From assembly GCA_018401015.1 (NCBI GenBank), contig JAGYLP010000008.1:33944-97943 (forward strand): DNA of 64,000 bases. The letters are read 5' to 3'. Made by a program: the position numbers and the translations under genes. This stretch comes from Bacteroidales bacterium (GTDB lineage Bacteria > Bacteroidota > Bacteroidia > Bacteroidales > M50B96). Positions within the stretch are counted from its first letter, which is position 1, and every line of letters begins with the position of its first letter. Below are positions 33,205-53,382 of this stretch, piece after piece. The notes beneath the pieces are model-generated. The model made no database searches. It was not told the DNA's origin and saw nothing but the letters and a program-made list of their open reading frames with translations.

Positions 33205-34635
33205 TCATTTTAGCTTTACCGGCTTCAAACCCAGCTTATCGCCGAGTATCAGCATATAAGCGTAGGCTTCGTCGAAATCGTTTCGGATTTCTCCCTCCAA
33301 AATAGCTTCTTTAATAGCATCTTTTATTTGCCCAACCTCTCTTGAGGGCTGAATCTGAAAAGTTTCCATGATAAGTTCACCAGACACCGGAGGTTGAAAG
33401 TTTCGAACAGCATCTTTTTCCTCAATTTCCTTCAGTTTCTTTCGAACAAGCTTAAAGTTATTGAGGTATCGTTGTTTTTTCGATTCATTTTTCGAAGTGA
33501 TATCCGCCTCGGCTAAGGTCATGAGTGAATCGATATCATCGCCGGCATCGAAGAGAAGCCTGCGCACGGCAGAATCGGTTACAAAATCTTCCGAAAGGAT
33601 AATGGGACGCAGGTGGAGCAAGACCATTTTTTGTACGAACTTCATCTTTTCATTTAAAGGTAATCGAAGTCGTTTAAAAATACGGGGGACCATTTTGGCT
33701 CCGAGAAATTCATGTCCATGAAAAGTCCAGCCCTGGTTGGGATAGTATTTTTTGGTGGGAGGTTTTGCAATGTCGTGCAATAGAGCCGACCAACGCAACC
33801 ATAAATCGTCGGAGTTGACTGCCAAGCGGTCGAGTACTTCCAGCGTATGGTAAAAGTTATCCTTATGCCCTCGTCCATCGACAAAATCGACTCCTTTCAA
33901 GGCTTGCACTTCCGGGAAGAATTGAGGCAGAAGGGCACTTTCCTCAAAGAGTTTCCAACCCACCGATGGGCGTGGACTCATCATAATTTTATGCAATTCG
34001 TCGCTAATCCGTTCCTGACTGATAATCGATAGGCGCTCAGCATGTTCCTTGATTGCCGCAAAGGTGTTCTCTTCGATGCGGAAACCAAGCTGGGTGGCAA
34101 ATCGGATGGCACGAATCATTCGGAGCGGATCGTCGGAAAAGGTAATACCTGGTTCCAGGGGTGTTCGGATAATTTTTTGAGCCAAATCGTTCAATCCTCC
34201 GAACGGATCGATTAATTCACCATAACTCGCTTTTCGTAAATCGAGCGCCAGTGCATTGATGGTAAAATCCCGACGATTCTGATCTTCCTGTAAGGTTCCA
34301 TCTTCCACGATGGGTTTACGTGAGTGTCGCTGGTAGCTCTCTTTGCGAGCTCCTACTAATTCTATTTCCCAATCGCGGAAGTGAAGCGAAGCCGTTCCAA
34401 AATTTTTGTAAACGGCCAATTTGCATTCTTTACCCAAACGGGCGGCCAACTCTTCAGCCAACTGGATCCCACTTCCTACTACCACCAAATCGATATCTTT
34501 CGACGAACGATTTAAAAGCAAATCACGAACAAATCCACCTACCACATAAGCTTCGCGACCATCTTTCTCAATGATTTCCGAAACATGTTGAAAAACGGGA
34601 TGTGTTAAACTACTTTGATAATTAGTCAAAATCAT
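33205..34635 (-). CDS. CCA-adding enzyme / poly(A) polymerase family tRNA nucleotidyltransferase with HD domain
   Basis: The track ORF is 33205..34698. Met22 (ATG at 34635) is the preferred start. Motifs GGFVRDLLL...[16 protein letters not shown] and an HD region (LLHDIAKP) are present. Confidence 0.85.
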
Positions 34636-34879
34636 ATTAATTAGCCCGTTCTTAGTAGATTTGAATTCTTGTTTCTTTTGAGTATGACCTTTTGTCAACC
34701 CCTACTTGCATTTTCCCTGACATTTCTTGAATTAAGGCTGCCAAAATTACAATTATTTCATTCCGAAGGAGGAAATTGAATGGAAAATCCTCCCTGGTAC
34801 TATTATTGAAAATTAACATATATACATATTTAAATATGTCGTTGACATATTATTTTTGAACCAAAATTTATTAAACAAA

Positions 34880-39009: not shown

Positions 39010-40707
39010 ATGCAACTAATTGAATGTGTTCCGAATTTTTCCGAAGGAAATGATATGCGTATCATTCAGCAAATTACCGCCGAAATTAGCAGTACCGAGG
39101 GAGTTAGTCTAATCGATGTCGATCCAGGAAAAGCAACGAACCGCACGGTGGTTACCATGGTTGGCAATCCTGAGCAGGTAATCGAAGCCGCTTTTAAGGC
39201 TATTAAAAAAGCTAAGGAACTCATTGATATGCGTCACCATAAAGGAGAACATCCTCGGTTCGGAGCCACCGATGTTTGTCCGCTTATTCCCATTTCCGGC
39301 ATCAGCATGGAAGAAACCGCTGCCTATGCGCATCGTTTAGCAGAGCGAGTTGGGCGTGAATTGAATATTCCGGTATATGCCTATGAGTCGGCAGCCAAAC
39401 AAGCGGTTCGGAAAAACCTGGCAAACTGCCGCGCCGGTGAATACGAAGCGCTCCCGAATCGCATAACGAGCACCGAATGGAAACCCGATTATGGTCCGTC
39501 GAGCTGGAACGAAGAAGTAGCCAAATCGGGTGCAACAGCTATTGGAGCCAGAAATTTCTTAATTGCCTACAATGTAAACCTGAATACTACCTCCACTCGT
39601 AGAGCGAATGCCATTGCTTTCGATGTACGTGAGCGAGGTCGTGTCAAGCGCGAAGGCGATCCTGTTACGGGAAAGATTGTATTGGATGAGAAAGGGAACA
39701 AGGTGTGGGAGCCCGGTATGTTAAAATCGGTGAAGGCAATTGGATGGTTTATAGAAGAATACGGCGTTGCTCAAATTTCGATGAACCTCACCGACATTGG
39801 CGTAACCAGCATGCATCAGGCCTATGAAGCTGTTTATGAGCGAGCCAATGCACGCGGCTTACGCGTAACCGGCTCCGAGCTGGTTGGCGTAGTACCCTTG
39901 CAAGCCATGCTCGATGCGGGTAAATACTTCCTTCGCAAACAAGAGCGGTCGCTCGGAATTTCGGACGAAGAGATTATCAAAATCGCGGTTAAGTCGCTTG
40001 GATTAGATGAATTGGGACCATTCGACCCACAAAAGAAAATCATCGAATACATCATGGCAGAGAAGGAAGGTGGGAAGAAACTCATCGATCTGAATCTGAA
40101 GGCATTCGTGCATGAAACAGCCTCCGAATCGCCAGCTCCGGGGGGAGGATCCATTTCAGCTTATATGGGAGCCATGGGCGCTGCCCTAGGAACCATGGTT
40201 GCTAATTTATCCTCGCATAAACGTGGTTGGGATCAGCGCTGGGAGGAGTTTAGCCAATGGGCCGAAAAAGGCAAGTATTTCCACGACGAATTACTGCGCA
40301 TGGTCGATGCCGACACACAAGCCTTTAATCAAATTATGGAGGCATTTGGCATGTCTAAATCGAACGAAGCGGAAGCTTCCTTGCGCAAAGAAGCCATTCA
40401 AGCAGCCACAAAAAATGCCATTGAAATCCCTTTCCGCGTAATGGAACTAGCCTTAGGATCGATGGAAGTAATGCACGCCATGGCTGAACACGGAAACCCC
40501 AATTCCGTCTCGGATGCTGGAGTAGGAGCACTCGCTGCCCGTTCGGCTGTAATAGGAGCTTTCCTGAATGTTCAAATTAATTCTGGCGACCTGGAGGATA
40601 AAACCTATGTAAAAGAGGTGATGGGAAAAGGTGCTGAAATGGTAGAAAAAGCTCAACATCTGGAAACAGTAATTTTGGGCATTGTTCAACAAAAAATGAA
40701 GGCGTAA
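39010..40707 (+). CDS. ftcD: bifunctional glutamate formimidoyltransferase / formimidoyltetrahydrofolate cyclodeaminase
   Basis: 565 aa. ECVPNFSEG at the N-terminus and a C-terminal cyclodeaminase helical domain (SESPAPGGGSISAYMGAMGAAL). Confidence 0.88.
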   Translation: MQLIECVPNFSEGNDMRIIQQITAEISSTEGVSLIDVDPGKATNRTVVTMVGNPEQVIEAAFKAIKKAKELIDMRHHKGEHPRFGATDVCPLIPISGISMEETAAYAHRLAERVGRELNIPVYAYESAAKQAVRKNLANCRAGEYEALPNRITSTEWKPDYGPSSWNEEVAKSGATAIGARNFLIAYNVNLNTTSTRRANAIAFDVRERGRVKREGDPVTGKIVLDEKGNKVWEPGMLKSVKAIGWFIEEYGVAQISMNLTDIGVTSMHQAYEAVYERANARGLRVTGSELVGVVPLQAMLDAGKYFLRKQERSLGISDEEIIKIAVKSLGLDELGPFDPQKKIIEYIMAEKEGGKKLIDLNLKAFVHETASESPAPGGGSISAYMGAMGAALGTMVANLSSHKRGWDQRWEEFSQWAEKGKYFHDELLRMVDADTQAFNQIMEAFGMSKSNEAEASLRKEAIQAATKNAIEIPFRVMELALGSMEVMHAMAEHGNPNSVSDAGVGALAARSAVIGAFLNVQINSGDLEDKTYVKEVMGKGAEMVEKAQHLETVILGIVQQKMKA

Positions 40708-40709
40708 GC

Positions 40710-41912
40710 TTGAAAAAGAAAGTAGCGGTAGGATTATCGGGAGGTGTCGATAGCAGCGTAGCAGCTTATCTGCTCAAAGAGCAAGGCTACGAGCTCATTG
40801 GCATTTACATGCAGAACTGGCACGATACCGAAGGTATTTTAGCAGGCGATTGCCCCTCGCACGACGACATTGTTTTTGCCAAACTAGTCGCCAAGAAACT
40901 CGACATTCCTTTTCATTTGGTCGACTTAAGCTCGGAATACAAGCAACGAGTGGTTGATTATATGTTTAGCGAATACGAGGCAGGGCGCACACCTAATCCG
41001 GACGTGCTCTGTAATCGAGAAATCAAATTCGATGTATTCTGGAAAGTAGCCCTCGAATTTGGTGTCGATTATGTTGCTACAGGCCATTATTGCCGAAAGG
41101 ACGAAATCGAAACTCCTTCGGGAACTTATTATCGGCTTTTAGCCGGAAAAGATCCGAACAAAGACCAGAGCTATTTTCTCTGTCAACTTGATCAAGAGCA
41201 GTTAAAAACAGCGCTTTTCCCGATTGGGCATTTGCAAAAATCGGAAGTACGGGCCATTGCAGCTAAGATGGAATTGGCTACTGCCGAGCGAAAGGATAGT
41301 CAAGGAATTTGTTTTATCGGGAAGGTGGATTTGCCCACCTTCCTGCAACAAAAACTGAGCGTTAAGAAAGGTCGTATTGTAGAAATAGCGAAAGACACTT
41401 GGTTTTATGGCAAACGAAAAGATCTTCCCTTCGAAGTGGATCGACCGGGAGAGGATGCCTTGCAAAAAATTTGTCGTCCTTATCATTATCTTCCTAAAGA
41501 TGGGGTAGTTGTGGGCGAGCACCGAGGGGCACACTTTTTCACCATCGGACAGCGAAAAGGCCTGAACGTTGGAGGAAAAGCTGAACCTTTGTTTGTAATT
41601 GCGACCGACACCGAATTGAACGTGGTTTATGTTGGTCAAGGGCACGATCATCCGGGTTTAAACCGACGGGCTCTCAAGATTGAAGCATCGGATGCTCATT
41701 GGGTGCGACCGGATAAACGATTGCACGTTGGAGAGTCGGCAGCATACCAGGTGCGTATCCGATACCGACAAGAACTACAAAATGCCCGGATCCATTGCTT
41801 GGAGGATGGCTTATACCTTCATTTTGAGCAACATCAGAGAGGAATTGCATCCGGTCAGTTTGCTGCATGGTACGAAAATGAAGAATTAATTGGCTCCGGC
41901 GTAATACGCTAA
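40710..41912 (+). CDS. mnmA: tRNA 2-thiouridine(34) synthase
   Basis: 400 aa with a TTG start. PP-loop GLSGGVDSSVAA, plus TGHY and DQSYFL motifs. Confidence 0.92.
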   Translation: MKKKVAVGLSGGVDSSVAAYLLKEQGYELIGIYMQNWHDTEGILAGDCPSHDDIVFAKLVAKKLDIPFHLVDLSSEYKQRVVDYMFSEYEAGRTPNPDVLCNREIKFDVFWKVALEFGVDYVATGHYCRKDEIETPSGTYYRLLAGKDPNKDQSYFLCQLDQEQLKTALFPIGHLQKSEVRAIAAKMELATAERKDSQGICFIGKVDLPTFLQQKLSVKKGRIVEIAKDTWFYGKRKDLPFEVDRPGEDALQKICRPYHYLPKDGVVVGEHRGAHFFTIGQRKGLNVGGKAEPLFVIATDTELNVVYVGQGHDHPGLNRRALKIEASDAHWVRPDKRLHVGESAAYQVRIRYRQELQNARIHCLEDGLYLHFEQHQRGIASGQFAAWYENEELIGSGVIR

Positions 41913-42067
41913 GTCAATTTTTTGTTCGCCAACCGGAAGGAATGAGGCGGGATAATTTAGTACTGAATCTTTCTTTACTTTGTTCACGCCGTAGCAGTTG
42001 AACGACCAATTTGCCAAAAATAACAGGGGTGGCACCCATTTAAAGCATTTAACAAACACCCGAAATC

Positions 42068-42559
42068 ATGAAAAGAGCTGTATTCCCCGGATCGTTCGAT
42101 CCATTTACGATTGGCCATGAATCCATCGTTCTTCGGGGATTGGATTTGTTCGATGAAATTATCATAGCGATTGGTTATAATTCCAATAAACCGGGTTTTT
42201 TTCCCATTGAACAGCGAATTCAATGGATTAAAGATGTGTTTAAGGATTATCCGCGAATTCAGGTCGATGCCTATCAGATGCTAACCATCGATTATTGCCG
42301 GAAGGTAGAGGCTCAGTTTATTCTGCGGGGGTTGCGAACCTCGGCCGATTTTGAATACGAACGAGCAATTGCACAGGTAAACAAAACCTTAGCCCCTCAA
42401 ATTGAATCGGCCTTTCTCTTAACTCTACCTGAGCACAGCATGGTAACAAGCAGCATTGTGCGCGATATTATTCGTCATGGAAGCGATGCTTCGCAATTAT
42501 TACCCAACCGAATGAAGATTAAGCCTGGCGATTACAGCTTCAAGGAATCGAGCCGCTGA
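42068..42559 (+). CDS. coaD: pantetheine-phosphate adenylyltransferase
   Basis: 163 aa with FPGSFDPFTIGHESIV. Confidence 0.92.
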   Translation: MKRAVFPGSFDPFTIGHESIVLRGLDLFDEIIIAIGYNSNKPGFFPIEQRIQWIKDVFKDYPRIQVDAYQMLTIDYCRKVEAQFILRGLRTSADFEYERAIAQVNKTLAPQIESAFLLTLPEHSMVTSSIVRDIIRHGSDASQLLPNRMKIKPGDYSFKESSR

Positions 42560-43710
42560 TAATATTTAAAATCCATTAGGAGACTATCGGAAGGATGAAG
42601 AATTGCCGTTAATTCGAGCAAAATGCGGTGAGGCTCAAGAATTCCGGTCTCCCAGTAATCATTCCCACCCGCCTCATTTTGTCGTTTGTTATTATTAAAA
42701 ACCTTTCCTTCGCGGAAGGATTTAAAATCGCCAAGTCGAGAGTCTATCGATAAAATTTCTTCCAAACTTTGAGCAAATCCTGAGTTAATCCAGATATCGG
42801 CATCGGCTGCTTTTAAGTAAACAGTCTCAAGCGATAAAGCTTGCGGTTCGCGTTTTGTCCAATGCGACCAGACATAATTTCCACCGGCATCGGCAATAAA
42901 ATGAGCCAGGTAGGAATCCATCCCGGGTAAGTACCACACTTCCTTCCACGGTAATCCGGTAAGCACTCTCGGTTTATGCTGAAACTGGAAGTTGTTTTCT
43001 CTTACAGCTTCGTAGGAAACCTGGATAGAATCGAATAACTGCTTTGCTTTTGCTTCTTCCTGAACGAATGGAGCTAAGGCCTTAATCCATTCGGCCTTCC
43101 CTAAGGGATGCGTTTCGAGGTAGTCGGCCACCATAAAATCATTCATTCCCAACTCCTGAATTTTAGCAGAAATGGCAGAAACTTCGCTCCCAACCCCATA
43201 ACTAAATAGCAGATCGGGATCAACTTCAATCATTACTTCCCAATTTAGACCTCCTTCGCCACCAATCTCACGCAAATCGCCGATAGCAATGCGTTCTTTC
43301 AACTCAGGATGATGCAAGTACCTTGTGCCGGAAACTGCCTGAATTAGTGAAGTTTTTTCCAAAGCGTGCATAAAACCGACATGCGTGGACGACATACACG
43401 CCATCGATTCGATAGGAACAGGAATGTATTGTGCCTCGAAGTCAAAATAAGGTTGAGGCATTTCTTTGGGATAAAGGACGTAGATAAATTCGACCTCTTC
43501 AGCACCTTGCCACGGATCTTTCACCACGATAAACGTAATGTCATCCTTTTCGTAGAGTTCAAATCCTTTTGCATACGCCAATTCAATTTGACTCGTTCCC
43601 TGTGGAAAAGGATCCTCCATTTCAGGACCATCAGACCGGGGCGACTTACAGGCCACCGCTTGAAAAAGAGAAATAAGCAGCACTATACGTATGCTGATGA
43701 AATGCTTCAT
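42532..43710 (-). CDS. periplasmic/lipoprotein ABC substrate-binding protein, metal-chelate (FecB/BtuF, type 8) family; no cognate permease or ATPase in the window
   Basis: The track ORF is 42532..43761. Met18 (ATG at 43710) gives the lipobox LFQAVA-C-KSP. The body resembles iron-siderophore/cobalamin binding proteins (PIESMACMSSTHVGF..., DPDLLFSYG). Confidence 0.7.
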   Translation of the reverse strand: MKHFISIRIVLLISLFQAVACKSPRSDGPEMEDPFPQGTSQIELAYAKGFELYEKDDITFIVVKDPWQGAEEVEFIYVLYPKEMPQPYFDFEAQYIPVPIESMACMSSTHVGFMHALEKTSLIQAVSGTRYLHHPELKERIAIGDLREIGGEGGLNWEVMIEVDPDLLFSYGVGSEVSAISAKIQELGMNDFMVADYLETHPLGKAEWIKALAPFVQEEAKAKQLFDSIQVSYEAVRENNFQFQHKPRVLTGLPWKEVWYLPGMDSYLAHFIADAGGNYVWSHWTKREPQALSLETVYLKAADADIWINSGFAQSLEEILSIDSRLGDFKSFREGKVFNNNKRQNEAGGNDYWETGILEPHRILLELTAILHPSDSLLMDFKYYQRLDSLKL

Positions 43711-43794
43711 GGTAACGTTTGTCTCAAAAAAACAGGGGTGATCCCCGAACCCGAGAATCACCCATGTAATACTGTTATAAAAGATTTGCCTTAA

Positions 43795-45642
43795 CTACGG
43801 CTGAATCAAAATACGCTCGGCATGCACTTTATTTCGATCGCTAACCCGAATAAAATAGAGTCCTGCCTTAATGTTTTGCATATTAATTTGAATCCGGTCG
43901 GTAGCTTGTAAAGCTGTTTTAACCGCAATTTGTTTACCGCTTACATCAAAAACCTGAATGGTACATTCCGAGGAAACGGGTTCTAAGAAGGCTACGTTTA
44001 GGAGACCACGACTTGGATTCGGATAAATTTCGAAAGCTTTATCAGCGACAACTACTTCATCTACGCCAATAATAGCACCGGTCGTATTACATACGATAGG
44101 TTCTACGCCCAAGCTGGTATTATATCCTGCAAATAATGGAATTTCGTGCATTGGAACCCAATTGTTATTCACTTTAACCAACATGGTTGACAAACCATTG
44201 GATCCTCGGTTATGCGCCATAGAGCAACTAAATACACCTTCGCCATTATAAACCAATTCGTAACCCACAAAGAAAGTTCCGGCTACATCGAGCGGAGTGT
44301 CGAAATAGATGAAGTTTGAAAAGTTCGGAGCCAAGCTCGAAACAAACACTTCTTTTGATCCTATTTCGTTCGTAGGAACTGTGTTTCCGGACCACACAAT
44401 GAATCGAACTTTCGTTCCGCTAGGAGCATCGGCTATATCGACCCAAGCTTGCAACCCGTTCACTTTATCGTAAATGGAATCACTGTTGGTATAGCGGTCG
44501 GCGTAAGCTTGATAGAGGTAAAAATTGTTCCCCGGTACCACTCCCCACGGAGATACAGGTAGTACGACCAGTGAATCGTTCGATAACAAGTTTGTTACAG
44601 TATCGCACACTTCGACTATGGGTTCTTCGGCCAGCACGGTGATATACGCATATTTTGTGCTGTAGGAAGTACCCCAGGCATTGGTTGTGGTTAAATACAC
44701 ATTGTAAGTACCCGGATAATTATAGGTAATAGTCGTCGGATTTTGATCGATGGAGCTAATGGGGCTTCCTCCTTGGAAGGTCCAACTCCATTCATCCGGG
44801 TTTCCGAGTGTTAGGTCAAGGAAATTAATGGATTCGCCCACCATAATTTCCGTATCGGTTGCAACAAAATCGGGTGTTGGAGCCGAAGGATTGACTACAT
44901 AAACATATTCGGTACGTTCGTGCGTATCGGTTCCGTCGGAAACGACTAAGGTAACCGGATAAACACCGATGGCATCGTATAGAACCGTGACATTCTGACT
45001 AGTGGAAGTTGCTGGATCACCTCCGGCAAAAGTCCAGTTCCAGGAAATAGGATCTCCCAATGATTCATCGATAAAATTAACTGTGTTTCCATACACTACG
45101 GTTACCGGGTTAATGGTAAAGAGTGCTGTGAGTTGTTCCTGGCAAGGTTGAGCAACCGGACCATAACTTTCGATCGTTGTTACAGCACTGCTGGAGCTCA
45201 TATCCTGTTCGAGAATGGTTTTATCGACATCGATTAAAACCATGGTCGGGTAAGCCGTTACACCATAATCGGCGCAAACGGAGTTAGCACCACCATCTTG
45301 TCCGCTACAAGCCGGGAAAGTTCCCCCGTATTGTATCATCCAATCCGTGACTTCTGGATCTGTATCGCCGTTGTTAATTGCGAGAAGTACTACTTCGCCG
45401 TAATTACAACCAAAATGCTGGTAAGCATTTTCGATCGCAGGGACAGAAGCCTGACAGGTAGGTCAACTATTGAAGAAAAAGTACAAAGCCACCATTTGGC
45501 CATTGTCCAAATAATCGAACAGATTATGGACATTGCCTTGGGTGTCGGTTACCGTAAAATCGACGGCAGTGGTCAGACCGGTTTGCCCCCAAACCGAGGC
45601 GGCAAAAACCAATGCAAACACCGACAAAAGCAATTTTTTCAT
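43795..45642 (-). CDS. predicted selenoprotein: signal peptide, thioredoxin-fold (TlpA/redoxin-like, U-P-T-C active site, Sec60 encoded by TGA), two PKD-like domains, an unknown beta-rich domain and a T9SS C-terminal sorting domain
   Basis: The track gives only 43795..45339 (514 aa, no signal peptide). The same frame continues upstream through one TGA (45463-45465) to ATG 45642. My translation is MKKLLLSVFALVFAASVWGQTGLTTAVDFTVTDTQGNVHNLFDYLDNGQMVALYFFFNS-U-PTCQASVPAIENAYQHFGCNYGEVVLLAINNGDTDPEVTDWMIQYGG... The two PKD-like repeats contain WNWTFAGGDP and WSWTFQGGSP. The C-terminal domain reads EIYPNPSRGLLNVAF...GLYFIRV. Confidence 0.75.
45406..45438 (-). promoter_or_regulatory. candidate SECIS-like hairpin in the coding sequence, starting 25 nt 3' of the UGA
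   Basis: RNA sequence GCGAUC-G-AAAAUGCU-UACC-AGCAUUUU-GGUUGU: an 8-bp upper stem, a tetraloop, a bulged G, and a 6-bp lower stem with G-U pairs. The loop starts ~39 nt after the UGA and lacks the loop G of published bacterial SECIS models, so this is tentative. Confidence 0.35.
45463..45465 (-). other. in-frame UGA, predicted selenocysteine codon (residue 60)
   Basis: This is the only stop between ATG 45642 and the stop at 43795. It occupies the position of the first Cys of the CxxC motif. Confidence 0.7.
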
Positions 45643-45679
45643 AAGCTAGTAAAGTTTAAAATGATCATCAAATGACTCT

Positions 45680-45687
45680 CAAAGATA
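45680..45687 (-). promoter_or_regulatory. candidate -7 box TATCTTTG (TAnnTTTG) for the selenoprotein gene
   Basis: The plus strand reads caaagata, so the minus strand reads TATCTTTG. It lies 38-45 nt upstream of ATG 45642. Confidence 0.35.
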
Positions 45688-46128
45688 TATAATTCACTCG
45701 TATGTAGCACGCATTTTTAAAATAAGACCTAAACATCTTATTTGGGTTAAACAAGCCTAAAAACAGACCCTCCCGAAGGAAGTTTTTCAACCCTAAAAAC
45801 AGCCATCCTAAGGGTTAGACGCACCTCCTTCCAAAAGGTTGCCTCTTAGTACCTCCTAATTTCGGTCCAATCCTCCTATTGCTTATCAAATCGGATTATG
45901 GTTTAGTCCAACCGAGAATCCCACACCAAGTTGCCCGTCCCGATTCGTGTCTATAGGATCTTGAATTTCGAATCTTAAACCTTAAACTTTGAATCCGCTC
46001 TTCCCAAAACATTTCCCCTTTAATGGAAGATGGAAAATACTATCTTTCGCGCTGGTTTAGTTTTCGGACAAATCTTCGACCTCGTTGGGATTATTCTGGT
46101 CGGATCGGAATCCTATTCAAAACCAATA

Positions 46129-46224
46129 CAGAGGGGACGGATCTGGTGGTTCATCTGGTCTTCAAAACCAGCAGCAGACGGATAAAACCGGCTGTGGCAG
46201 GTTCGATTCCTGCCCCCTCGGCCA
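46129..46224 (+). tRNA. selC: tRNA-Sec (anticodon UCA)
   Basis: Folded by hand. D arm: ggatc-tggt-ggttc (46139-46152), a long stem with a 4-nt loop. Anticodon arm: ctggt-cTTCAaa-accag (46155-46171), with anticodon TCA at 46162-46164. Long variable arm: cagc-aga-cgg-ataaaa-ccg-gctg (46172-46194). T arm: gcagg-ttcgatt-cctgc (46197-46213). Acceptor: gagggg / cccctc, followed by ggcca. The exact 5' and 3' ends are ambiguous (see findings). Confidence 0.8.
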
Positions 46225-46245
46225 AGACACTTTACTTACTATTAC

Positions 46246-47655
46246 ATGAGCGACCATCACGCTAAATTGAGTTCAATCCCGGGTGTTGATACACTCATAG
46301 AGGTTGAAGCTATTCGCAACTTATTGGATAAGCATCCTTCGCGACTCGTTAAAAGCATTATTCGCGAACAATTAGATGAAGCCAGAGAGCAAATAAAAGC
46401 TGGCCATGAGGTTAGTACTCAAGGCTTGATTGATGCTATCGTGGCGGTTTGTTCCAATACCTTCAAACCCTCTTTAAAGAAGGTTTTGAATGCGACTGGA
46501 ATACTGATACACACCAATTTAGGAAGAGCTCCCTTAGGAAAAGAAGTGCTCGAAGAAGCCTGGCAAGTGTTGGAAGATTACAACAACCTCGAATTCGACC
46601 TGGATAAAGGGAAACGAGGCAGTCGATACAAACATGTGAGCCAATTGATTTGCAAGATTACCGGGGCGGAATCAGCCTTGGTGGTAAATAATAATGCCGC
46701 CGCCTTAATGCTCATCCTGCGAACCTTTGCCAAGAATCGGGAAGTAATTGTATCTCGAAGTGAGCTGATCGAGATCGGAGGATCTTTTCGTCTGCCCGAT
46801 ATCATGGCTGCCAGCGATTGCAAAATGGTAGAAGTGGGCACTACCAATAAAACCCGTTTAAGCGATTATGCACACCACATAACCGACGACACCGCGCTCC
46901 TGCTAAAAGCACACTGGTCGAATTTCATCATCAAAGGGTTTACCGAGGAAGTTCGTCCCGATGAGTTAGCTGCGCTAGGAAAAGAAAGAGGAATCCTTTC
47001 CATGCTTGATTTGGGTTCCGGGTTACCCGACAATCGCATTCATCCGCTACTGCAAAGTGAATTAGATATTCGAACTGCTTTGAACAGTAACGTCGATTTG
47101 GTTTGCTTTAGCGGCGACAAGCTGTTTAATGGGCCGCAAGCTGGAATTATTCTCGGAAGCGAAAGCTTGATTAATCAGCTAAAAAAAGAGCAAATGACCC
47201 GTGCCTTGCGGGTAGGAAAAACCACCTTGGCTTTACTGGAAACGGTTTGCAAGCGGCATTTAAAATCGGATAATCAATCGCTCGATTTACCCATTTATCG
47301 AAAACTAAACCGGAGCAAACAAGAATTCCTCGAATTAGGCGAAAAACTTCTTCGATTATTGGAATCGATAGGTCTCGAAGGAGAGATTATTCCATCCGAA
47401 GGACGATTTGGTGGCGGAGCATTGCCTGAAACCATCATTCCCTCCTACTCCGTAGAATTGAGCAAACCGGCCAAAAAAGCGCATCATGAAAAACTCCATT
47501 TCGGTCTTATGAAGCATCCTCGACCGGTTGTGAGTAGCCTGATTAAAGGTCGATTATCGTTCAATTTGCTTAGCTTAAACGAACACGATTTAGAACCCCT
47601 GGTGCAGAGCCTATCCGACGTATGGACTCGATTAGGTGCACCGAAAGAGAACTGA
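46246..47655 (+). CDS. selA: L-seryl-tRNA(Sec) selenium transferase
   Basis: 469 aa. N-terminus LSSIPGVDTLIE, motifs VLNATGILIHTNLGRAPL and VNNNAAALMLIL, and the PLP-lysine motif FSGDKLFNGPQAGII. Confidence 0.9.
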   Translation: MSDHHAKLSSIPGVDTLIEVEAIRNLLDKHPSRLVKSIIREQLDEAREQIKAGHEVSTQGLIDAIVAVCSNTFKPSLKKVLNATGILIHTNLGRAPLGKEVLEEAWQVLEDYNNLEFDLDKGKRGSRYKHVSQLICKITGAESALVVNNNAAALMLILRTFAKNREVIVSRSELIEIGGSFRLPDIMAASDCKMVEVGTTNKTRLSDYAHHITDDTALLLKAHWSNFIIKGFTEEVRPDELAALGKERGILSMLDLGSGLPDNRIHPLLQSELDIRTALNSNVDLVCFSGDKLFNGPQAGIILGSESLINQLKKEQMTRALRVGKTTLALLETVCKRHLKSDNQSLDLPIYRKLNRSKQEFLELGEKLLRLLESIGLEGEIIPSEGRFGGGALPETIIPSYSVELSKPAKKAHHEKLHFGLMKHPRPVVSSLIKGRLSFNLLSLNEHDLEPLVQSLSDVWTRLGAPKEN

Positions 47656-49589
47656 CTTTGAACAAGCACCTGATAATTGGCACCGCTGGACATGTCGATC
47701 ATGGGAAGACAGCCCTCGTAAAAGCGCTCACCCAAATCGACTGCGATACCCATCCCGAAGAAAAACAGCGAGGCATCACCATTCATTTAGGATTTGCCCA
47801 TATCCGTTTACCCGATGGGAATGAGTTTGGAATAGTGGACGTTCCCGGTCATAAAGATTTCATTCAGACTATGGTTGCCGGGACCTCCGGTATCGATTTA
47901 ATCCTGTTAGTGATTGCAGCCGACAGCGGCATTATGCCCCAAACCCGGGAACATTTATCGATTATTCAAGCTTTGGGAGTGACCCGGGGTATTGTCGTCA
48001 TTAGCAAGAGTGATTTGGCCGATCAGGAATGGCTCGATATGTTGGAGTTGGATATTCGCTCTTTTCTCGAAGGCAGTTTCCTGAATGAAGCTCCTATTGT
48101 GCGCGTATCGTCACAAACCGGACACGGACTTACGGATCTAGTGGATTTATTGCAAGCGGAAGCTCTATTCTGTAAAAGCAAACCGTCGGAAGGCGCTTTT
48201 CGATTATACATCGACCGATTATTCAGCGTGAAAGGACAAGGATATGTAGCTACCGGCTCGGTCCTTTCCGGTCGCATACAGAGCAAGGATAAAGTTTATT
48301 TACTCCCTTCCGGGAAAGAATACACCGTAAAAGGAATTCAGCGATTTGGCCGGGAGGTAGCCGATGCTTTTGCCGGCGATCGAGCTGCTATCAATTTAGC
48401 CGGGTTCAAGCCGGAAGATTTTGAGCGCGGCATGCTATTAAGTTCAAGCATCCGATCGACCAGCGAGCGAGCCGATGCCAGTATCCAGCTCTTCCCGGGT
48501 TCTACCATCGGGAAAAAGCATAGCTACGTACTTTTTTTATGTGGAACCTTCCAGACCAAAGCGCGCATGCACCTCATCGACGCTTCCAAGCTGGAAGAAG
48601 GAGAAGAAGCCATTGTCCAATTTCACTTCGATAAAAAACCGATTTTAGAGCGAGGCGACCGTTTCATATTGCGAAACACTTCGAACGATTCGAGCTTGGG
48701 AGGAGGCTACATAATAGACTCTCAACCCTTGCATCACAAGCGCCCGAAAGCCGATTTGATTGAATCATTGCAAGGATTAAAACAAGCTATCGAGTCGCAG
48801 GCCAATGAATTAAACCTGTTAGCTTTGAGTCTGCTGAAACTCGACGGCCCTGTAAAGGTGAGCCAGTTGTGCGATGAAGCATCGATACAGACAAATCCAT
48901 CCGAATTTTCCCGAGAAGAATTACTAGCCGAAGGGATTCACTATTTTCCGGAATTAGACATGCTGGTTCATCGCGTTTATCTGGAAAAGATCGAGCAAAA
49001 GGTCCTTGCAATATTGGCTGAACATCATCAAAAATTCTATCTGTTAGCGAGCGGATTGACAACCTCTGCTTTATCGGGGAAACTAGGGATACGCGCCAAA
49101 ACGCCCGCCGACCAACTCATCCCTCATCTTTTACAACTAATTCCTTCCATACGCGAACATCAGGGGCAGTGGATGCTTGCGAACTTTACGGTTAAGTTGT
49201 CGGCAAAGGATCGAGAGGACTTGGAATGGATGGTTGAGCAATATGCCCATTACGAGTGGAACAAACCCGTAGAGGAAGATTTGGATCAGGAAGCGAATAA
49301 GCGGAACATTGCTAAGGAAAAACGCAAAATGTATTGTCAGTATTTGGTAAACGATGGCCGCTTATACGCTTACGATCAAGGCTTTCTGCACGCATCGGTG
49401 GTTAAGCAGGCGAAAGAACGGGTAGTGGAAGAATTAATTCGGCGGGGGAAAGGGATGAATGAAGGAGATTTCCGGACCTTGCTCGGAGCCACGCGAAAGA
49501 TTGTCCCGCCCTTATTGAGTATTTTGCAAAAAGAAGGTGTTATCACTCAGGAAAAATTCATTATCGCCCTACCCGATTCAAAAAAATGA
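47622..49589 (+). CDS. selB: selenocysteine-specific translation elongation factor
   Basis: 655 aa. IIGTAGHVDHGKTALVKALT, DVPGHKDF and SKSD GTPase motifs, with a long C-terminal winged-helix-type extension. An alternative TTG start at 47658 lies 3 nt after the selA stop. The ATG at 47622 overlaps selA by 34 nt. Confidence 0.88.
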   Translation: MDSIRCTERELTLNKHLIIGTAGHVDHGKTALVKALTQIDCDTHPEEKQRGITIHLGFAHIRLPDGNEFGIVDVPGHKDFIQTMVAGTSGIDLILLVIAADSGIMPQTREHLSIIQALGVTRGIVVISKSDLADQEWLDMLELDIRSFLEGSFLNEAPIVRVSSQTGHGLTDLVDLLQAEALFCKSKPSEGAFRLYIDRLFSVKGQGYVATGSVLSGRIQSKDKVYLLPSGKEYTVKGIQRFGREVADAFAGDRAAINLAGFKPEDFERGMLLSSSIRSTSERADASIQLFPGSTIGKKHSYVLFLCGTFQTKARMHLIDASKLEEGEEAIVQFHFDKKPILERGDRFILRNTSNDSSLGGGYIIDSQPLHHKRPKADLIESLQGLKQAIESQANELNLLALSLLKLDGPVKVSQLCDEASIQTNPSEFSREELLAEGIHYFPELDMLVHRVYLEKIEQKVLAILAEHHQKFYLLASGLTTSALSGKLGIRAKTPADQLIPHLLQLIPSIREHQGQWMLANFTVKLSAKDREDLEWMVEQYAHYEWNKPVEEDLDQEANKRNIAKEKRKMYCQYLVNDGRLYAYDQGFLHASVVKQAKERVVEELIRRGKGMNEGDFRTLLGATRKIVPPLLSILQKEGVITQEKFIIALPDSKK

Positions 49590-49630
49590 CAAAAAAGGGG
49601 TTAGCTTAATTCTAAATCTAGTGCGAGGGA

Positions 49631-50515
49631 TTAGTTGAGCGACTGAATGTATTTTTCCAGTTCATCGAGCCGATCGATAATTCGTATGGGCGATTTTTCG
49701 GGCAACGGATGTTTTGAGCTGGCCGAACCGGTAAGCACAATTTGATGTTTGGGGAAGCTGGCGTGCAATTCGGCTATGAATGTTTCCCATTGCGATTCGT
49801 TCATGGGCATGATTACGGAGATAATCATGTGTTTTGCTTTCCAGAATTTTTCGACTTCGGCTACCGAGTTTACCGGTGTTCCCGAACCTATATACAAGAC
49901 CGTGAATCCCTTTTTCTTCAGCAGATAATAGGCATACAATAAACCCATTTCGTGTAAATCTTTTTCCGGGAGGAAGAGGATGAATTTACGGTCGGTATCA
50001 TTCTTCTCGTTGGGGATGGACTCGATGGTAAAGATGAGTTTTTGCCGGATCAGGTTGGAAATAAAATGCTCCTGAGCGGGAGTAATGGATCCACTTAGCC
50101 ACAAGAGGCCTATTTTTTCGAGCGATGGTAAAATGAGTTGTATGTAGGTTTCTTCGAAAGAAAATTGTTCGACTGCCTGATTGAATAGTTCATGAAATTT
50201 ATCCTCGTTGAGCGTAAGCATAGCAAGGATTAGCGCTTCAATTTTATCGGAAATACCGGATGCCCGCGAGGTTACCTCGAGCACTTTCTTTTCAATATCC
50301 TCTTGGGCTAAACTCGCCAAATAGGAAATTTTCATTCCTTTATTATTGAGAATGGCGATGTTGAGAATATGTCGAAGATCGTCGTCGGAATACGAACGAA
50401 TATTGGTATCGGTTCTCCCCGGATCGATGATGCCATAGCGTTTTTCCCAAATTCGGATGGTATGCGCTTTGATCCCCGAAAGGTTTTCTAAATCTTTGAT
50501 GCTGTATTGAGCCAT
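49631..50515 (-). CDS. MerR-family regulator with C-terminal cobalamin-binding domain (CarH/LitR-like)
   Basis: 294 aa. N-terminal HTH YSIKDLENLSGIKAHTIRIWEKRYG. The C-terminal domain carries a DxHxxG B12-binding motif (EKDLHEMGLLYA). Confidence 0.75.
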   Translation of the reverse strand: MAQYSIKDLENLSGIKAHTIRIWEKRYGIIDPGRTDTNIRSYSDDDLRHILNIAILNNKGMKISYLASLAQEDIEKKVLEVTSRASGISDKIEALILAMLTLNEDKFHELFNQAVEQFSFEETYIQLILPSLEKIGLLWLSGSITPAQEHFISNLIRQKLIFTIESIPNEKNDTDRKFILFLPEKDLHEMGLLYAYYLLKKKGFTVLYIGSGTPVNSVAEVEKFWKAKHMIISVIMPMNESQWETFIAELHASFPKHQIVLTGSASSKHPLPEKSPIRIIDRLDELEKYIQSLN

Positions 50516-50534
50516 TGTAGTTGGATTTTATCCC

Positions 50535-51059
50535 TTAAGAAGCAAGATGTTTGAGAATTTTCTGGCTCATGGGTTTGGTGATACTGTAAAAAACATCCAC
50601 CCACCGACCGTCGGGGTCGATGAGGTATTTTTGGAAGTTCCATTTTACAGAATTATTGTCTTTTCCATTTTTTTCTTTCTGGGTTAACCAAGCGTATATG
50701 GTATGTTGATGATCGCCCATTACATCGACCTTTTCGGCCATTAGGAAGCTAACGCCATAGTTCGAGGCACAAAAGGTTTCGATTTCCTCCGCTGATCCGG
50801 GTTCCTGATTAGCAAACTGGTTGCAGGGAAAACCGATTATAGCCAGTTTATCCCCAAACTTGCTATGCAATTCTTGTAAGTCGGCATACTGCGGGGTAAA
50901 TCCACACTTGGATGCGACATTTACAATAAGGATAAACTTCCCTTTAAACTCGCTCATCGAATGCTCTTTCCCTTGCAAGGATTTAAAACTTAGCGAATGA
51001 ATGCTAGGTAAATCTTTCACTTCTACCTCTCTATTTCGAAGCCACGGTATCATACACAA
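50535..51059 (-). CDS. glutathione peroxidase (Cys form)
   Basis: 174 aa. Motifs LIVNVASKCGFTPQY, FPCNQF and WNFQKYL. The catalytic residue is a TGT Cys codon at 50903-50905, not TGA. Confidence 0.9.
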   Translation of the reverse strand: MCMIPWLRNREVEVKDLPSIHSLSFKSLQGKEHSMSEFKGKFILIVNVASKCGFTPQYADLQELHSKFGDKLAIIGFPCNQFANQEPGSAEEIETFCASNYGVSFLMAEKVDVMGDHQHTIYAWLTQKEKNGKDNNSVKWNFQKYLIDPDGRWVDVFYSITKPMSQKILKHLAS

Positions 51060-51239
51060 AAAATTATTAACTCTTACTAACCCCGGAAGGAATCAAATTG
51101 TTTAATAAAAAGACAAAATCTATAAACAAATTTGGGAAAAAATGTTTCAAGTAAGTTTTAGATGAGTCGAAGGAGTTGTCAACAAGATTTAAACAAGTCG
51201 GGAATTACCACTAAATTTGGAGCAAAATTCGAAAAAGAA

Positions 51240-51545
51240 ATGGCAAGTATTTTCAAAGTCCCTAAGCATAAGAAATTCACTTACAGCCCCTTGTATTTCA
51301 ATCCGGAAAAGGAAGAATTGGATAAACGGGTTCGTCAATCCCGAAGTGAGCTAAGCGAACAAGGTTCCACCTCCTTTGTTCCGAATATAAAGGGGAAAAT
51401 GAAAAAGAACCTGATTAGTCCGCATTATGGCGATGCGAAAGCAGAAAAAATCCGGAGATTAATCATATTAGCCACCATTTTTCTCTTAATCGGCGTTTTT
51501 TATTATCTCATCAAACTCTACGGATTATTCTTTATTCATGGCTGA
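51240..51545 (+). CDS. small membrane protein, unknown function
   Basis: The track ORF is 51162..51545. Met27 is the likelier start. A single C-terminal TM (LIILATIFLLIGVFYYLI). It overlaps the mutL start by 8 nt. Confidence 0.45.
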   Translation: MASIFKVPKHKKFTYSPLYFNPEKEELDKRVRQSRSELSEQGSTSFVPNIKGKMKKNLISPHYGDAKAEKIRRLIILATIFLLIGVFYYLIKLYGLFFIHG

Positions 51546-53382
51546 TATCATTCAATTACTCCCTGATTCTGTAGCCAACCAAATAGCTGCCGGAGAAGTA
51601 ATCCAACGCCCTGCCTCGGTGGTTAAAGAATTGGTTGAAAATGCGATTGATGCCGGAGCCAGCCAAATTCGGATTTATCTTAAAGATGCCGGACGAAGCC
51701 TGGTTCAAGTGATCGACAACGGCAAAGGTATGTCGGTGAGCGATGCACGGTTGGCTTTTGAGCGACATGCTACTTCGAAAATTCGGGAAGCTCAGGATTT
51801 GTTTGCTATCCGAACCATGGGATTTCGGGGCGAGGCCTTAGCATCGATTGCCGCGATTGCTCAGGTAGATTTGAAAACAAAACGAGCCGAAGATGAATTA
51901 GGAACCTGGATTGAAATCGCCGGTTCGGAAGTGTTATCGCAGGAAGCTTGTACCATGAGCGAAGGGTCGAACTTCAGTGTAAAGAATCTTTTTTACAATA
52001 TCCCTGTTCGTAGGAAATTTTTGAAATCGAACACCACTGAATTTAAATACATATTACAAGAGATACAGCGAGTTGCTCTCTGTAATCCGAGCATCCAGTT
52101 TTATTTAAACCACAACGATACCGAAGTGTATCAGCTCACCTTGGGCAATCCGCTTAAACGAATCGAACAGCTTTTTCGAAAAAATTTGGCGCAACAACTG
52201 GTACCAATCGACACCGAAACCAGCATTGTAAGCATTCACGGCTACATTGGAAAGCCTGAGTCGGCAAAAAAAAGTTCCGGAGAGCAATTCTTTTTTGTGA
52301 ATCAACGGTACATGAAGCACCCTTCTTTTCATCGAGCAGTGGTTCAGGCTTATGAGCGCCTCATCCCTTCGGATGCCTGGCCCTCCTACTTCATCTTTTT
52401 TGAAATTGATCCGTCCGCCATCGATGTGAATATTCATCCAACTAAGACTGAAATAAAGTTTGAGGATGAAAACAATGTTTGGAGAATCCTTCAACTTGTT
52501 GTAAAAGAAGCATTAGGCAAATTTAACCTGGCTCCGAGCATCGATTTCGACAGTCCTCCTGTTATCGATATTCCGGTTGCCGACCCTCATAAGACTCCCA
52601 ACCCACCGCAGGTAAAACTCAATCCGCATTACAATCCATTTTCGGATTCAACTGCTTCGGGGCGAAGTCAATCCTTTAATTCCAGGACTGCCGGATTTCA
52701 GAAACCCGATATTCGAAATTGGGAGAGTTTGTACCGCGATTTCGATCAATCTCCTCAACCCGAGCAAAGCCTGATTTTCCCTTCCGACCATGAGTCTCGC
52801 TCCGAGTCGGCCGATTGGCAATCGGGCTCGCAACTTTTACATTTCAAGAATCGTTTCATCCTTTCGTCGGTAAAAAGTGGCCTAATGATTATTGATCATC
52901 GGCGGGCGCATATCCGAGTTTTGTACGAACGATTCCTGCATCGGCAACAATCGGGTTCTTATGGTTCGCAAGGATTATTGTTTCCCGAAACTTTTGATAT
53001 GGCTCTGGACGACATCCTGATACTGGACGAATTGCTTCCATCGCTTCGTCAACTGGGTTTCGATCTCGACCTTTCAGCAAGTCGGCAGGTTCAATTAAAA
53101 GCTGCTCCTACGGAATGGGTTGGAAATCGCTACGAAGAACTCATGCAGGAACTGATTGAAAATTACAGGGAAAATCAATCGGAAGATGAATTAGGGATTC
53201 ACGAGAAGCTTGCTCATTCCATGGCTAAAACGGCAGCCATGAAAACCAATCGCAGTTTGAGCCAGGAAGAAATGGAGGAGCTGATTGGGCAATTATTTGC
53301 CTGCGAATTTCCTCAGTACACTCCAGGCGGAAAACCGATTCTGCACCTTATTCCAACCAACGATATTGAACAACTATTTTAA
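51538..53382 (+). CDS. mutL: DNA mismatch repair protein MutL
   Basis: 614 aa. N-terminal GHKL ATPase motifs (IAAGEVIQRPASVVKELVENAIDAGA, DNGKGM, GFRGEAL). Confidence 0.93.
   Translation: MADIIQLLPDSVANQIAAGEVIQRPASVVKELVENAIDAGASQIRIYLKDAGRSLVQVIDNGKGMSVSDARLAFERHATSKIREAQDLFAIRTMGFRGEALASIAAIAQVDLKTKRAEDELGTWIEIAGSEVLSQEACTMSEGSNFSVKNLFYNIPVRRKFLKSNTTEFKYILQEIQRVALCNPSIQFYLNHNDTEVYQLTLGNPLKRIEQLFRKNLAQQLVPIDTETSIVSIHGYIGKPESAKKSSGEQFFFVNQRYMKHPSFHRAVVQAYERLIPSDAWPSYFIFFEIDPSAIDVNIHPTKTEIKFEDENNVWRILQLVVKEALGKFNLAPSIDFDSPPVIDIPVADPHKTPNPPQVKLNPHYNPFSDSTASGRSQSFNSRTAGFQKPDIRNWESLYRDFDQSPQPEQSLIFPSDHESRSESADWQSGSQLLHFKNRFILSSVKSGLMIIDHRRAHIRVLYERFLHRQQSGSYGSQGLLFPETFDMALDDILILDELLPSLRQLGFDLDLSASRQVQLKAAPTEWVGNRYEELMQELIENYRENQSEDELGIHEKLAHSMAKTAAMKTNRSLSQEEMEELIGQLFACEFPQYTPGGKPILHLIPTNDIEQLF

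Follow-up and report, generated by a model that had tools for sequence, protein, structure and literature searches.

The DNA analysed here is a stretch of 64,000 nucleotides from a Bacteroidales bacterium (assembly GCA_018401015.1, contig JAGYLP010000008.1), hereafter the window, in which all positions are counted from its first letter. On its minus strand lies a gene (43795..45642) whose reading frame crosses a single TGA at the point where the catalytic cysteine (Cys) of a thioredoxin fold is expected, and beside it, on the other strand, lie genes for a selenocysteine (Sec) tRNA, SelA and SelB. A first interpretation made from the letters alone (the sequence-only reading) had taken this gene for a selenoprotein that is exported by the secretion system of type IX (T9SS) and hidden behind a truncated open reading frame (ORF). 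We consider it very likely that the gene encodes a genuine selenoprotein, the UGA at 45465..45463 being decoded as Sec and the product exported via the T9SS as a surface or secreted redoxin. The gene and the parts of its read-through product are as follows.

43795..45642, minus strand: predicted selenoprotein gene at full length, 615 codons plus a TAG stop, codon 60 being the TGA read as Sec (from the frame, the TGA-spanning domains and the homologues in frame)
45463..45465, minus strand: in-frame TGA, predicted Sec codon and first residue of U-P-T-C, aligned with the nucleophilic Cys of CxxC
45586..45642, minus strand: signal peptide (MKKLLLSVFALVFAASVWG), read from the sequence by inspection, predicted mature N-terminus Q20
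45199..45570, minus strand: ResA/TlpA-like redoxin (thioredoxin-fold) domain, residues 25-148 (Pfam AhpC-TSA and Redoxin; ResA structures)
44899..45108, minus strand: PKD domain 1, about residues 179-248 (Pfam PKD and PKD_4)
44632..44874, minus strand: PKD domain 2, about residues 257-337 (two Pfam PKD stretches, boundaries from the repeat pattern in the sequence)
44038..44631, minus strand: conserved beta-sandwich domain of jelly-roll, lectin/CBM-like type to which no family is assigned, residues 338-535 (AlphaFold2, Foldseek)
43798..44028, minus strand: T9SS type A C-terminal sorting domain, residues 539-615, the last 77 (PF18962, TIGR04183)

The frame starts at ATG 45642..45640, the first ATG past an upstream in-frame TAG, and ends at TAG 43797..43795, with TGA 45465..45463 as its sole internal stop. 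The residues flanking the TGA (...ALYFFFNS*PTCQASVPAIENAY...) are those quoted in the sequence-only reading, whose account of one frame running through a single TGA up to ATG 45642 is borne out on the minus strand; the predicted peptide across the Sec site is ...YFFFNS-U-PTCQASVPAIENAYQHFGCNYGEVVLLAINNGDTDPEVTDWMIQYGGTFPACSGQDGGANSVCADYGVTAYPTMVLIDVDK. The mechanical ORF list holds 43795..45339 only (514 amino acids (aa), from an internal ATG), and the sole public protein identical to the window (P0001) is the same truncated 514-aa product. That gene callers would truncate or miss this gene had been foreseen, and truncation or splitting was indeed found in the loci examined: upstream fragments of 59-60 aa are called as separate genes in four of them (L001, L007, L008 and L010), and two public entries, P0013 (L002:806-3211) and P0023 (L003:399-1439), carry tryptophan (Trp) at the Sec position, where the underlying DNA is TGA. 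The stored P0013 and P0023 proteins were not obtained from their loci under table 11, and the Trp in them is the result of the caller's use of genetic code 4 on short contigs. This code-4 call is a second kind of mis-annotation concealing selenoproteins. Elsewhere in the window TGA is a genuine stop: of 30 long ORFs, three (selA, selB and 33205..34701) end in it, and the match of selA to its model covers the full length. This excludes a general recoding of TGA. Scanning the window gave six candidate ORF pairs interrupted by TGA, among which 43795..45642 alone had a redox motif and homology support.

Domain scans of the read-through protein were made with Cys substituted for the TGA-encoded residue. 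The Pfam AhpC-TSA model matched residues 25-143 (49.5 bits against a cutoff of 26; 5e-13), so the match spans the TGA, and Redoxin (39.6 bits against 26.6; 6e-10) and Thioredoxin_8 (34.2 bits against 27) also scored above their cutoffs. A profile of the redoxin domain matched Bacillus ResA structures with E = 1e-18, and the alignment with ResA 4NMU and 3C71 places U/CxxC on WCKPC/WCPHC and the 'YPT' of the cis-Pro loop on 'LPT'. The protein resembles ResA, DsbE and StoA and, by its NCBIfam scores, would be an orthologue of none of them (ResA NF002854, 55 against 170 bits; DsbE TIGR00385, 20 against 123; StoA, 20 against 210). The predicted signal peptide, MKKLLLSVFALVFAASVWG before Q, exists in the read-through form only and by inspection shows the pattern of MKK, a hydrophobic core and a G-Q junction, and Q20 is invariant in all 12 aligned homologues. 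In Bacteroidota, substrates of signal peptidase I as a rule have glutamine (Gln) at +1.

At the other end of the protein, the sorting domain was matched by Por_Secre_tail (PF18962; 55.8 bits against a cutoff of 27, 6e-15, residues 539-613) and by TIGR04183 (46.2 bits against 23, residues 539-614 of 615). The domain preceding it was modelled with AlphaFold2 (residues 338-535) as an all-beta fold with mean pLDDT 76 and pTM 0.78. In the PDB, Foldseek matched this model (TM about 0.5) to a baseplate protein of phage phi812, the Cwp84 lectin-like domain and CBM4/6/36, and a sequence search of the PDB with the same domain gave no match; the model weakly suggests a ligand-binding role. The composition that the sequence-only reading had proposed thus holds throughout: the extension adds a signal peptide and the active-site region of a TlpA/redoxin-type fold, as the TGA-spanning Pfam matches and the ResA profile attest, both PKD repeats and the T9SS domain are found by Pfam, the latter with TIGR04183 above its cutoff, and the Redoxin, AhpC-TSA, Thioredoxin_8, PKD and Por_Secre_tail models all match the read-through translation.

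A search of 5.8 billion proteins returned about 12 close relatives of 442-528 aa covering only the C-terminal 72%-85% of the protein, along with full-length relatives that have the redoxin domain. At the DNA level, every one of these short relatives proved to be built like the gene in the window: a piece encoding a signal peptide lies upstream, a TGA follows, and the remainder continues in frame. Homologue DNA was fetched and scored in the column aligned to the TGA, counting loci from one-genome-per-species scans, JGI metagenomes and other loci. Across all of them, the column holds TGA in 27 and TGT or TGC in 144, with any other codon in none; in the subset from the one-genome-per-species and JGI metagenome scans, 159 relatives could be scored (16 TGA, 143 TGT/TGC and no other codon). 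The frame is kept without a frameshift in all 27 Sec-form loci. Their UxxC motifs vary (UPTC, UPAC, UGSC, UGGC, UGIC, UPSC, UPNC, USSC, UGPC and UAAC), and those of the Cys forms include CGAC, CPSC, CSPC, CGPC and CPPC, among others. The 12 aligned homologues share invariant residues on either side of the TGA, with A26, D28, F29, T30, D33, G36, L41 and F42 among those before it and C63, P68, F77, G78 and C79 among those after it.

The TGA was claimed to sit exactly on the nucleophilic first Cys of CxxC, with relatives expected to have Cys in some cases and TGA in others, and the homologue column (144 and 27 loci, respectively) and the ResA alignment agree on this. TGA in 27 homologous loci together with Cys in 144 is therefore far beyond chance. 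A sequencing error at 45463-45465, which the sequence-only reading had left to be checked, is excluded by the presence of TGA in L012, a locus 99% identical to the window from a different metagenome-assembled genome (MAG), and in 25 further loci of other assemblies. Judged from these comparisons, the TGA of the window is neither an error nor a pseudogene.

Two scans for the family returned 291 and at least 318 relatives, almost all of them from records labelled Bacteroidota, with about 10% Sec forms and 90% Cys forms; no NCBIfam model names or covers it. A neighbour-joining tree of the redoxin domain (no support values) places the Sec forms in four clades with Cys forms between them, a pattern that fits repeated Cys/Sec exchange. 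Domain composition varies in the family. The Cys forms of about 260 aa that were scanned consist of the redoxin and sorting domains alone, and other members have a further domain inserted, which may be PKD, FN3-like or a second redoxin-like one that is without CxxC. In each of the nine members scanned, which include both Sec and Cys forms, the sorting domain is kept with a good score. The second redoxin-like domain of two Cys forms (L059:6001-7842 and L063:775-2298; …FFLAGDPFSE…) looks like a degenerate duplicate. One locus holds tandem paralogues (L003:399-1439 and L003:1590-2594), each with an in-frame TGA at the CxxC column (UPTC and UPNC), and its organism would make at least two T9SS selenoproteins.

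The machinery for Sec lies next to the gene, in divergent orientation.

46129..46224, plus strand: tRNA-Sec (anticodon TCA), divergent from the selenoprotein gene (ARAGORN; Rfam RF01852 with 56.2 bits, above its gathering score of 47)
46246..47655, plus strand: selA, selenocysteine synthase (TIGR00474, 500 bits against a cutoff of 268)
47622..49589, plus strand: selB, Sec-specific elongation factor (TIGR00475, 322 bits against a cutoff of 242)

The tRNA-Sec is 487 nucleotides (nt) from the ATG of the selenoprotein gene on the opposite strand, and was the sole Rfam match (E <= 1) over 40000..52000. The three genes had been placed about 0.5 kb away on the opposite strand from the letters alone, and all of them pass curated thresholds. 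In the clade to which the window belongs (clade A), a divergent tRNA-Sec lies about 0.5 kb upstream in every locus that reaches that far (the window, L001, L004-L009 and L013), usually accompanied by selA and selB; L092, which the tRNA scan did not cover, has selA and selB in the corresponding position. A clade-B locus (L026:2391-5907) has the order tRNA-Sec, selA, selB and gene on a single strand, which, set against the divergent clade-A order, points to repeated or mobile linkage of sel genes with the cargo gene. No sel genes are near the Cys form L011.

Some further features of this region were observed. On their listed starts, selA and selB overlap by 34 nt (47622-47655), which suggests translational coupling, and both end in TGA, a rare stop in the window. 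An 80-aa ORF that overlaps the tRNA-Sec (46023-46265, plus strand) has no family match and is almost certainly spurious. Directly after selB, on the opposite strand, is a gene for a MerR-family regulator with a B12-binding domain (49631-50515, minus strand; CarH-like, light- or cobalamin-responsive), and about 1 kb beyond selB one for a glutathione peroxidase homologue (50535-51059, minus strand) whose active site, NVASKCGFT, makes it Cys-type and not Sec-type.

On its other side, the selenoprotein gene is followed by a gene for a lipoprotein.

42532..43710, minus strand: predicted lipoprotein with a Peripla_BP_2 (metal-chelate-binding type) fold (PF01497, 3e-14; lipobox ...LFQAVAC)
43736..43763, minus strand: terminator-like hairpin (12 bp, 7 of them G-C, then a T run), just past the stop codon of the selenoprotein gene

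The Peripla_BP_2 lipoprotein is immediately downstream in all seven clade-A loci that extend that far. Its fold is of the type that binds haem, siderophores or B12; in the window, it has no ABC permease or ATPase gene beside it and belongs to no NCBIfam family. The listed GTG start of its ORF at 43761 is probably wrong, and ATG 43710 gives a lipoprotein signal peptide. In L010 (3231-5372), and likewise in L015, the gene directly upstream of the Sec-form gene encodes a DsbD-type membrane electron transporter (DsbD_N, DsbD_TM and thioredoxin domains), which might reduce the redoxin in the periplasm ahead of its export. A relationship with the SAO system was considered, with the binding protein compared to the SaoB family and the selenoprotein to SaoT, and NCBIfam gave no match. 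The largest cluster of neighbouring genes was discarded as an artefact, as it consisted of the genes' own C-terminal parts and other T9SS tails.

If UGA is decoded as Sec, the messenger should carry a selenocysteine insertion sequence (SECIS) near it, and the RNA after the UGA was compared between Sec and Cys forms. Positions with a plus sign below are counted from the U of the UGA.

45397..45462, minus strand: 22 codons after the TGA with the strongest synonymous-site conservation in the gene, the expected place of a SECIS (clade-A comparison)
45418..45457, minus strand: SECIS candidate A, a long hairpin with imperfect pairing at +9..+48 whose apical loop, CCUGC, lies at +25..+29 (-6.3 kcal/mol)
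45405..45439, minus strand: SECIS candidate B, a 15-bp hairpin at +27..+61 with one bulged G and loop UACC (-12.8 kcal/mol alone)

Synonymous-codon identity, that is, the chance that two sequences share the codon for the same amino acid, was computed for eight clade-A Sec genes with a mean protein identity of 56%. It reached 0.68 in the 22 codons after the UGA against 0.44 +/- 0.066 elsewhere, with none of 515 other positions of the 22-codon frame as high; codons such as GCU (+5), CCU (+8) and UGU (+19) are invariant in clade A. A second Sec clade has a similar peak (0.62-0.64 against 0.41-0.49), and three control groups of Cys forms of similar divergence have no synonymous peak at the equivalent place. 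Clade A, including the window (45465-45330), has a second invariant synonymous patch at codons +34 to +38 (ACA GAU .. GAA GUC, nt +103..+117), well past any expected SECIS.

Compared at equal G+C, the segment +4..+75 folds more stably in Sec forms (n = 26; mean -18.1 kcal/mol) than in Cys forms (n = 120; -13.2 kcal/mol; p = 3e-8), with the strongest contrast at +13..+45 (p = 3e-7), statistics that count related sequences as independent. Clade D has a hairpin at +16..+42 (loop +25..+33) in which 97.6% of cells are paired and three of seven pairs show compensatory changes, against 14%-45% for slid controls, and a clade-B hairpin at +17..+33 likewise shows compensatory changes, involving synonymous sites. 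We regard these results as strong indirect evidence that Sec forms, and they alone, have an element at the RNA level after the UGA. In the window, candidates A and B are mutually exclusive. The loop of A coincides in position with that of the covariation-supported clade-D hairpin and A lies within the interval of the largest Sec/Cys difference, with an ensemble probability of about 0; B is the most stable hairpin of the window, with pair probabilities mostly of 0.8-1.0 in the +1..+75 ensemble. Both stay candidates, and neither is singled out as the SelB-binding element. Two clade-A hairpins from RNAalifold (+4..+21 and +43..+61) were rejected as SECIS, since the first is broken in the window and both fall outside the accepted spacing from UGA to loop.

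Taken together, a route from gene to surface can be proposed. The UGA would be decoded by Sec-tRNA(Sec), charged via the product of the neighbouring selA and delivered by that of the neighbouring selB, and Sec insertion would be directed by an element of the mRNA within about 70 nt downstream of the UGA. The resulting pre-protein of 615 residues comprises, as read from the sequence, the predicted cleavable signal peptide, a thioredoxin fold with U60-P-T-C63, two PKD domains, the beta-sandwich and the T9SS domain. It would be carried over the inner membrane by the general secretory translocon and fold in the periplasm, after which the T9SS would take it over the outer membrane, where the C-terminal domain would be removed and the protein anchored at the surface or released; we infer one of these two locations from its sorting domain and signal peptide. 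There, the U60 selenolate may attack substrate disulfides or other electrophiles to form a selenenylsulfide that is resolved by C63, with the PKD and beta-sandwich modules perhaps serving as spacer and ligand-binding parts. Our best guess at its function is surface redox chemistry that supports nutrient acquisition (haem or another metal chelate), because of the conserved lipoprotein neighbour of metal-chelate type, the DsbD gene beside one homologue and the precedent of HBP35, a T9SS cargo of Porphyromonas gingivalis. More speculatively, reducing power could come from the periplasm before export or from environmental thiols.

Were the TGA instead a real stop, the locus would hold a 59-residue peptide and a separate, internally started PKD/T9SS protein, or else a decaying pseudogene. 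Gene callers give exactly this split, the window is without a canonical SECIS and TGA does act as a stop in the same genome. Yet both parts of the redoxin domain, before and after the TGA, are intact and hold invariant residues, the frame persists through 27 independent Sec-form loci, the called internal starts vary among homologues (hence products of 442-528 aa) and the truncated product would be a T9SS cargo with no signal peptide. With synonymous conservation at its highest right after the TGA and the Sec machinery physically linked to the gene, termination at this codon seems highly improbable. The identity of the aligned residue bears on another possibility, in which the UGA is read through without Sec-tRNA(Sec), by near-cognate insertion of Trp or Cys or as a lineage-specific sense codon, to give a full-length protein that is not a selenoprotein: in 144 homologues this residue is the catalytic Cys, never Trp or glycine (Gly), and with Trp in place of the nucleophile the domain would be inactive. 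The two entries that translate the codon as W (P0013 and P0023) would favour such read-through, but they stem from the caller's code 4 and the codon is TGA. That no model-conforming SECIS was found also speaks for it. Against it, selA, selB and a further long ORF of the window end in TGA, and tRNA-Sec, selA and selB adjoin the gene in two gene orders. There is very little probability left, in our estimate, for read-through of this kind. A true selenoprotein could also work in the periplasm as a reductase of ResA/TlpA/CcmG type fed by DsbD/CcdA, for example in cytochrome or cuproprotein maturation, with its T9SS domain vestigial or for turnover only. The closest solved relatives, ResA and StoA, are extracytoplasmic reductases, a DsbD gene is adjacent in L010 and L015, and beyond the outer membrane there is no known electron donor. 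We nonetheless consider a periplasmic role unlikely: the retention of a well-scoring sorting domain in nine of nine members argues for its use, modules such as PKD and lectin-like ones are a typical feature of T9SS cargo, whether surface-bound or secreted, the NCBIfam scores for ResA and DsbE are far under their cutoffs (55 against 170 and 20 against 123), and HBP35 is a T9SS protein with a thioredoxin motif that does reach the surface.

Some of the results weigh against a Sec-decoded, T9SS-exported redoxin. A selD gene was not found in the 64-kb window, by tblastn with an E. coli SelD query, which is a weak test. The bacterial SECIS (bSECIS) model (PMC13188914), applied as a strict scan, found no conforming hairpin in the window or in L012, accepted 2 of 17 Sec forms and gave no separation between Sec and Cys forms; some genuine selenoprotein genes are noted to fall outside this model (PMC13188914). 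Candidate B departs from it with a spacing of 39 nt and a loop without G, and its 3' arm lies on Gly-Cys codons that pair in Cys forms too. RNAalifold gave no consensus structure over all 16 Sec forms. The check for a SECIS by model and by covariance that accompanied the sequence-only reading was therefore answered in part: a covarying hairpin was found in clade D and compensatory changes in clade B, while the window itself fails the model and the Sec forms as a whole share no consensus. In addition, no electron donor is evident for a surface reductase, members of the family all come from MAGs, and co-transcription with the Peripla_BP_2 neighbour is doubtful because the strong terminator-like hairpin intervenes; an operon of the two genes was rejected on this ground, and only conserved adjacency is claimed.

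The selenoprotein subfamily is at present invisible to standard pipelines, as the gene and at least 26 relatives are mis-annotated publicly, being truncated, split (a 59-aa fragment and a 'PKD domain protein') or given Trp. If the proposed reading is true, selenocysteine chemistry takes place at the Bacteroidota cell surface via the T9SS, and we found no description of such a compartment or export route for it. The mix of Sec and Cys forms in at least four clades offers a natural experiment on why Sec is preferred in an extracellular redox enzyme, and selenoprotein predictors could be improved with the family's downstream RNA elements, which the current bacterial SECIS model misses. Given its tight linkage with tRNA-Sec, selA and selB, the gene looks to be a simple and testable system in which to study the Sec trait of Bacteroidota. 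A bolder combination of claims is possible but doubtful as a whole: that this is the first bacterial surface or secreted selenoprotein, that the Sec trait is kept mainly or only for it, as the compact module of sel genes and this one cargo gene in several lineages would suggest, that its SECIS is of a type outside the standard model, and that it is a reductase without dedicated recycling that aids haem or metal-chelate uptake together with the lipoprotein.

Redoxin chemistry with UxxC is already known, and what appears undescribed is the T9SS cargo architecture, the Bacteroidota family and its linkage with sel genes. Among the papers that could be searched, none was found that joins selenoproteins with the T9SS, in keeping with the novelty supposed by the sequence-only reading for a T9SS-fused Sec redoxin, and no description was found of the Bacteroidota family or of its selC/selA/selB linkage. 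Thioredoxin-fold proteins with Sec for Cys had been called an established class, and surveys do hold such classes: 'Prx-like 1' thiol:disulfide oxidoreductase selenoproteins (PF00578, UxxC) have been catalogued since the Global Ocean Sampling (GOS) survey (PMC2398784), and TlpA-like or thiol-disulfide isomerase-like selenoproteins (cd02966, UxxC) are likewise established (PMC13188914). Likened by domain class to reference entries of these groups (WP_010940744.1 and MGB1650493.1), the window family shares with them a PF00578/PF08534 match, Sec in place of the N-terminal nucleophilic Cys of CxxC and Cys homologues that far outnumber Sec forms, which fits repeated Cys/Sec exchange. Unlike in those groups, the domain of the window heads a multi-domain T9SS cargo (two PKD domains, beta-sandwich and sorting domain), and the family is almost confined to Bacteroidota MAGs and linked to tRNA-Sec, selA and selB.

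With ResA, TlpA, StoA and CcmG (for example, PDB 4NMU, 1ST9 and 3ERW), the protein shares export from the cytoplasm and an alignable CxxC, cis-Pro 'PT' loop and domain length. Proteins of ResA type have a single domain and use Cys. They are periplasmic or anchored in the membrane, and CcdA or DsbD reduces them for the maturation of cytochrome c or of the spore cortex. The protein of the window, by contrast, carries Sec, further domains and a signal for the T9SS. Periplasmic formate dehydrogenases and [NiFeSe] hydrogenases are extracytoplasmic bacterial selenoproteins. So are SaoB and SaoC of the SAO system (bioRxiv 10.1101/2022.07.06.499078). These proteins show, as is proposed here, that Sec proteins can be exported and function outside the cytoplasm, but they have other folds and routes (twin-arginine translocation (Tat), or general secretory/lipoprotein export in Gram-positives), and none of those named is known to be a T9SS cargo or to cross the outer membrane.

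By architecture, the protein can be likened to HBP35, a T9SS cargo with a thioredoxin motif that is surface-exposed, reduces insulin and is needed for growth at low haemin (PMC2907840), and that has been shown by experiment to be at the cell surface, attached to anionic lipopolysaccharide (PMC2907840, PMC3120885). HBP35 uses Cys (C48 and C51), is without PKD and beta-sandwich domains and binds haemin through its C-terminal half, unlike the protein of the window. Both have a signal peptide with a mature Gln N-terminus, an N-terminal CxxC-type region and a T9SS C-terminal domain, and as HBP35 is linked to haem acquisition, so the gene of the window has a binding lipoprotein of metal-chelate type as its conserved neighbour.

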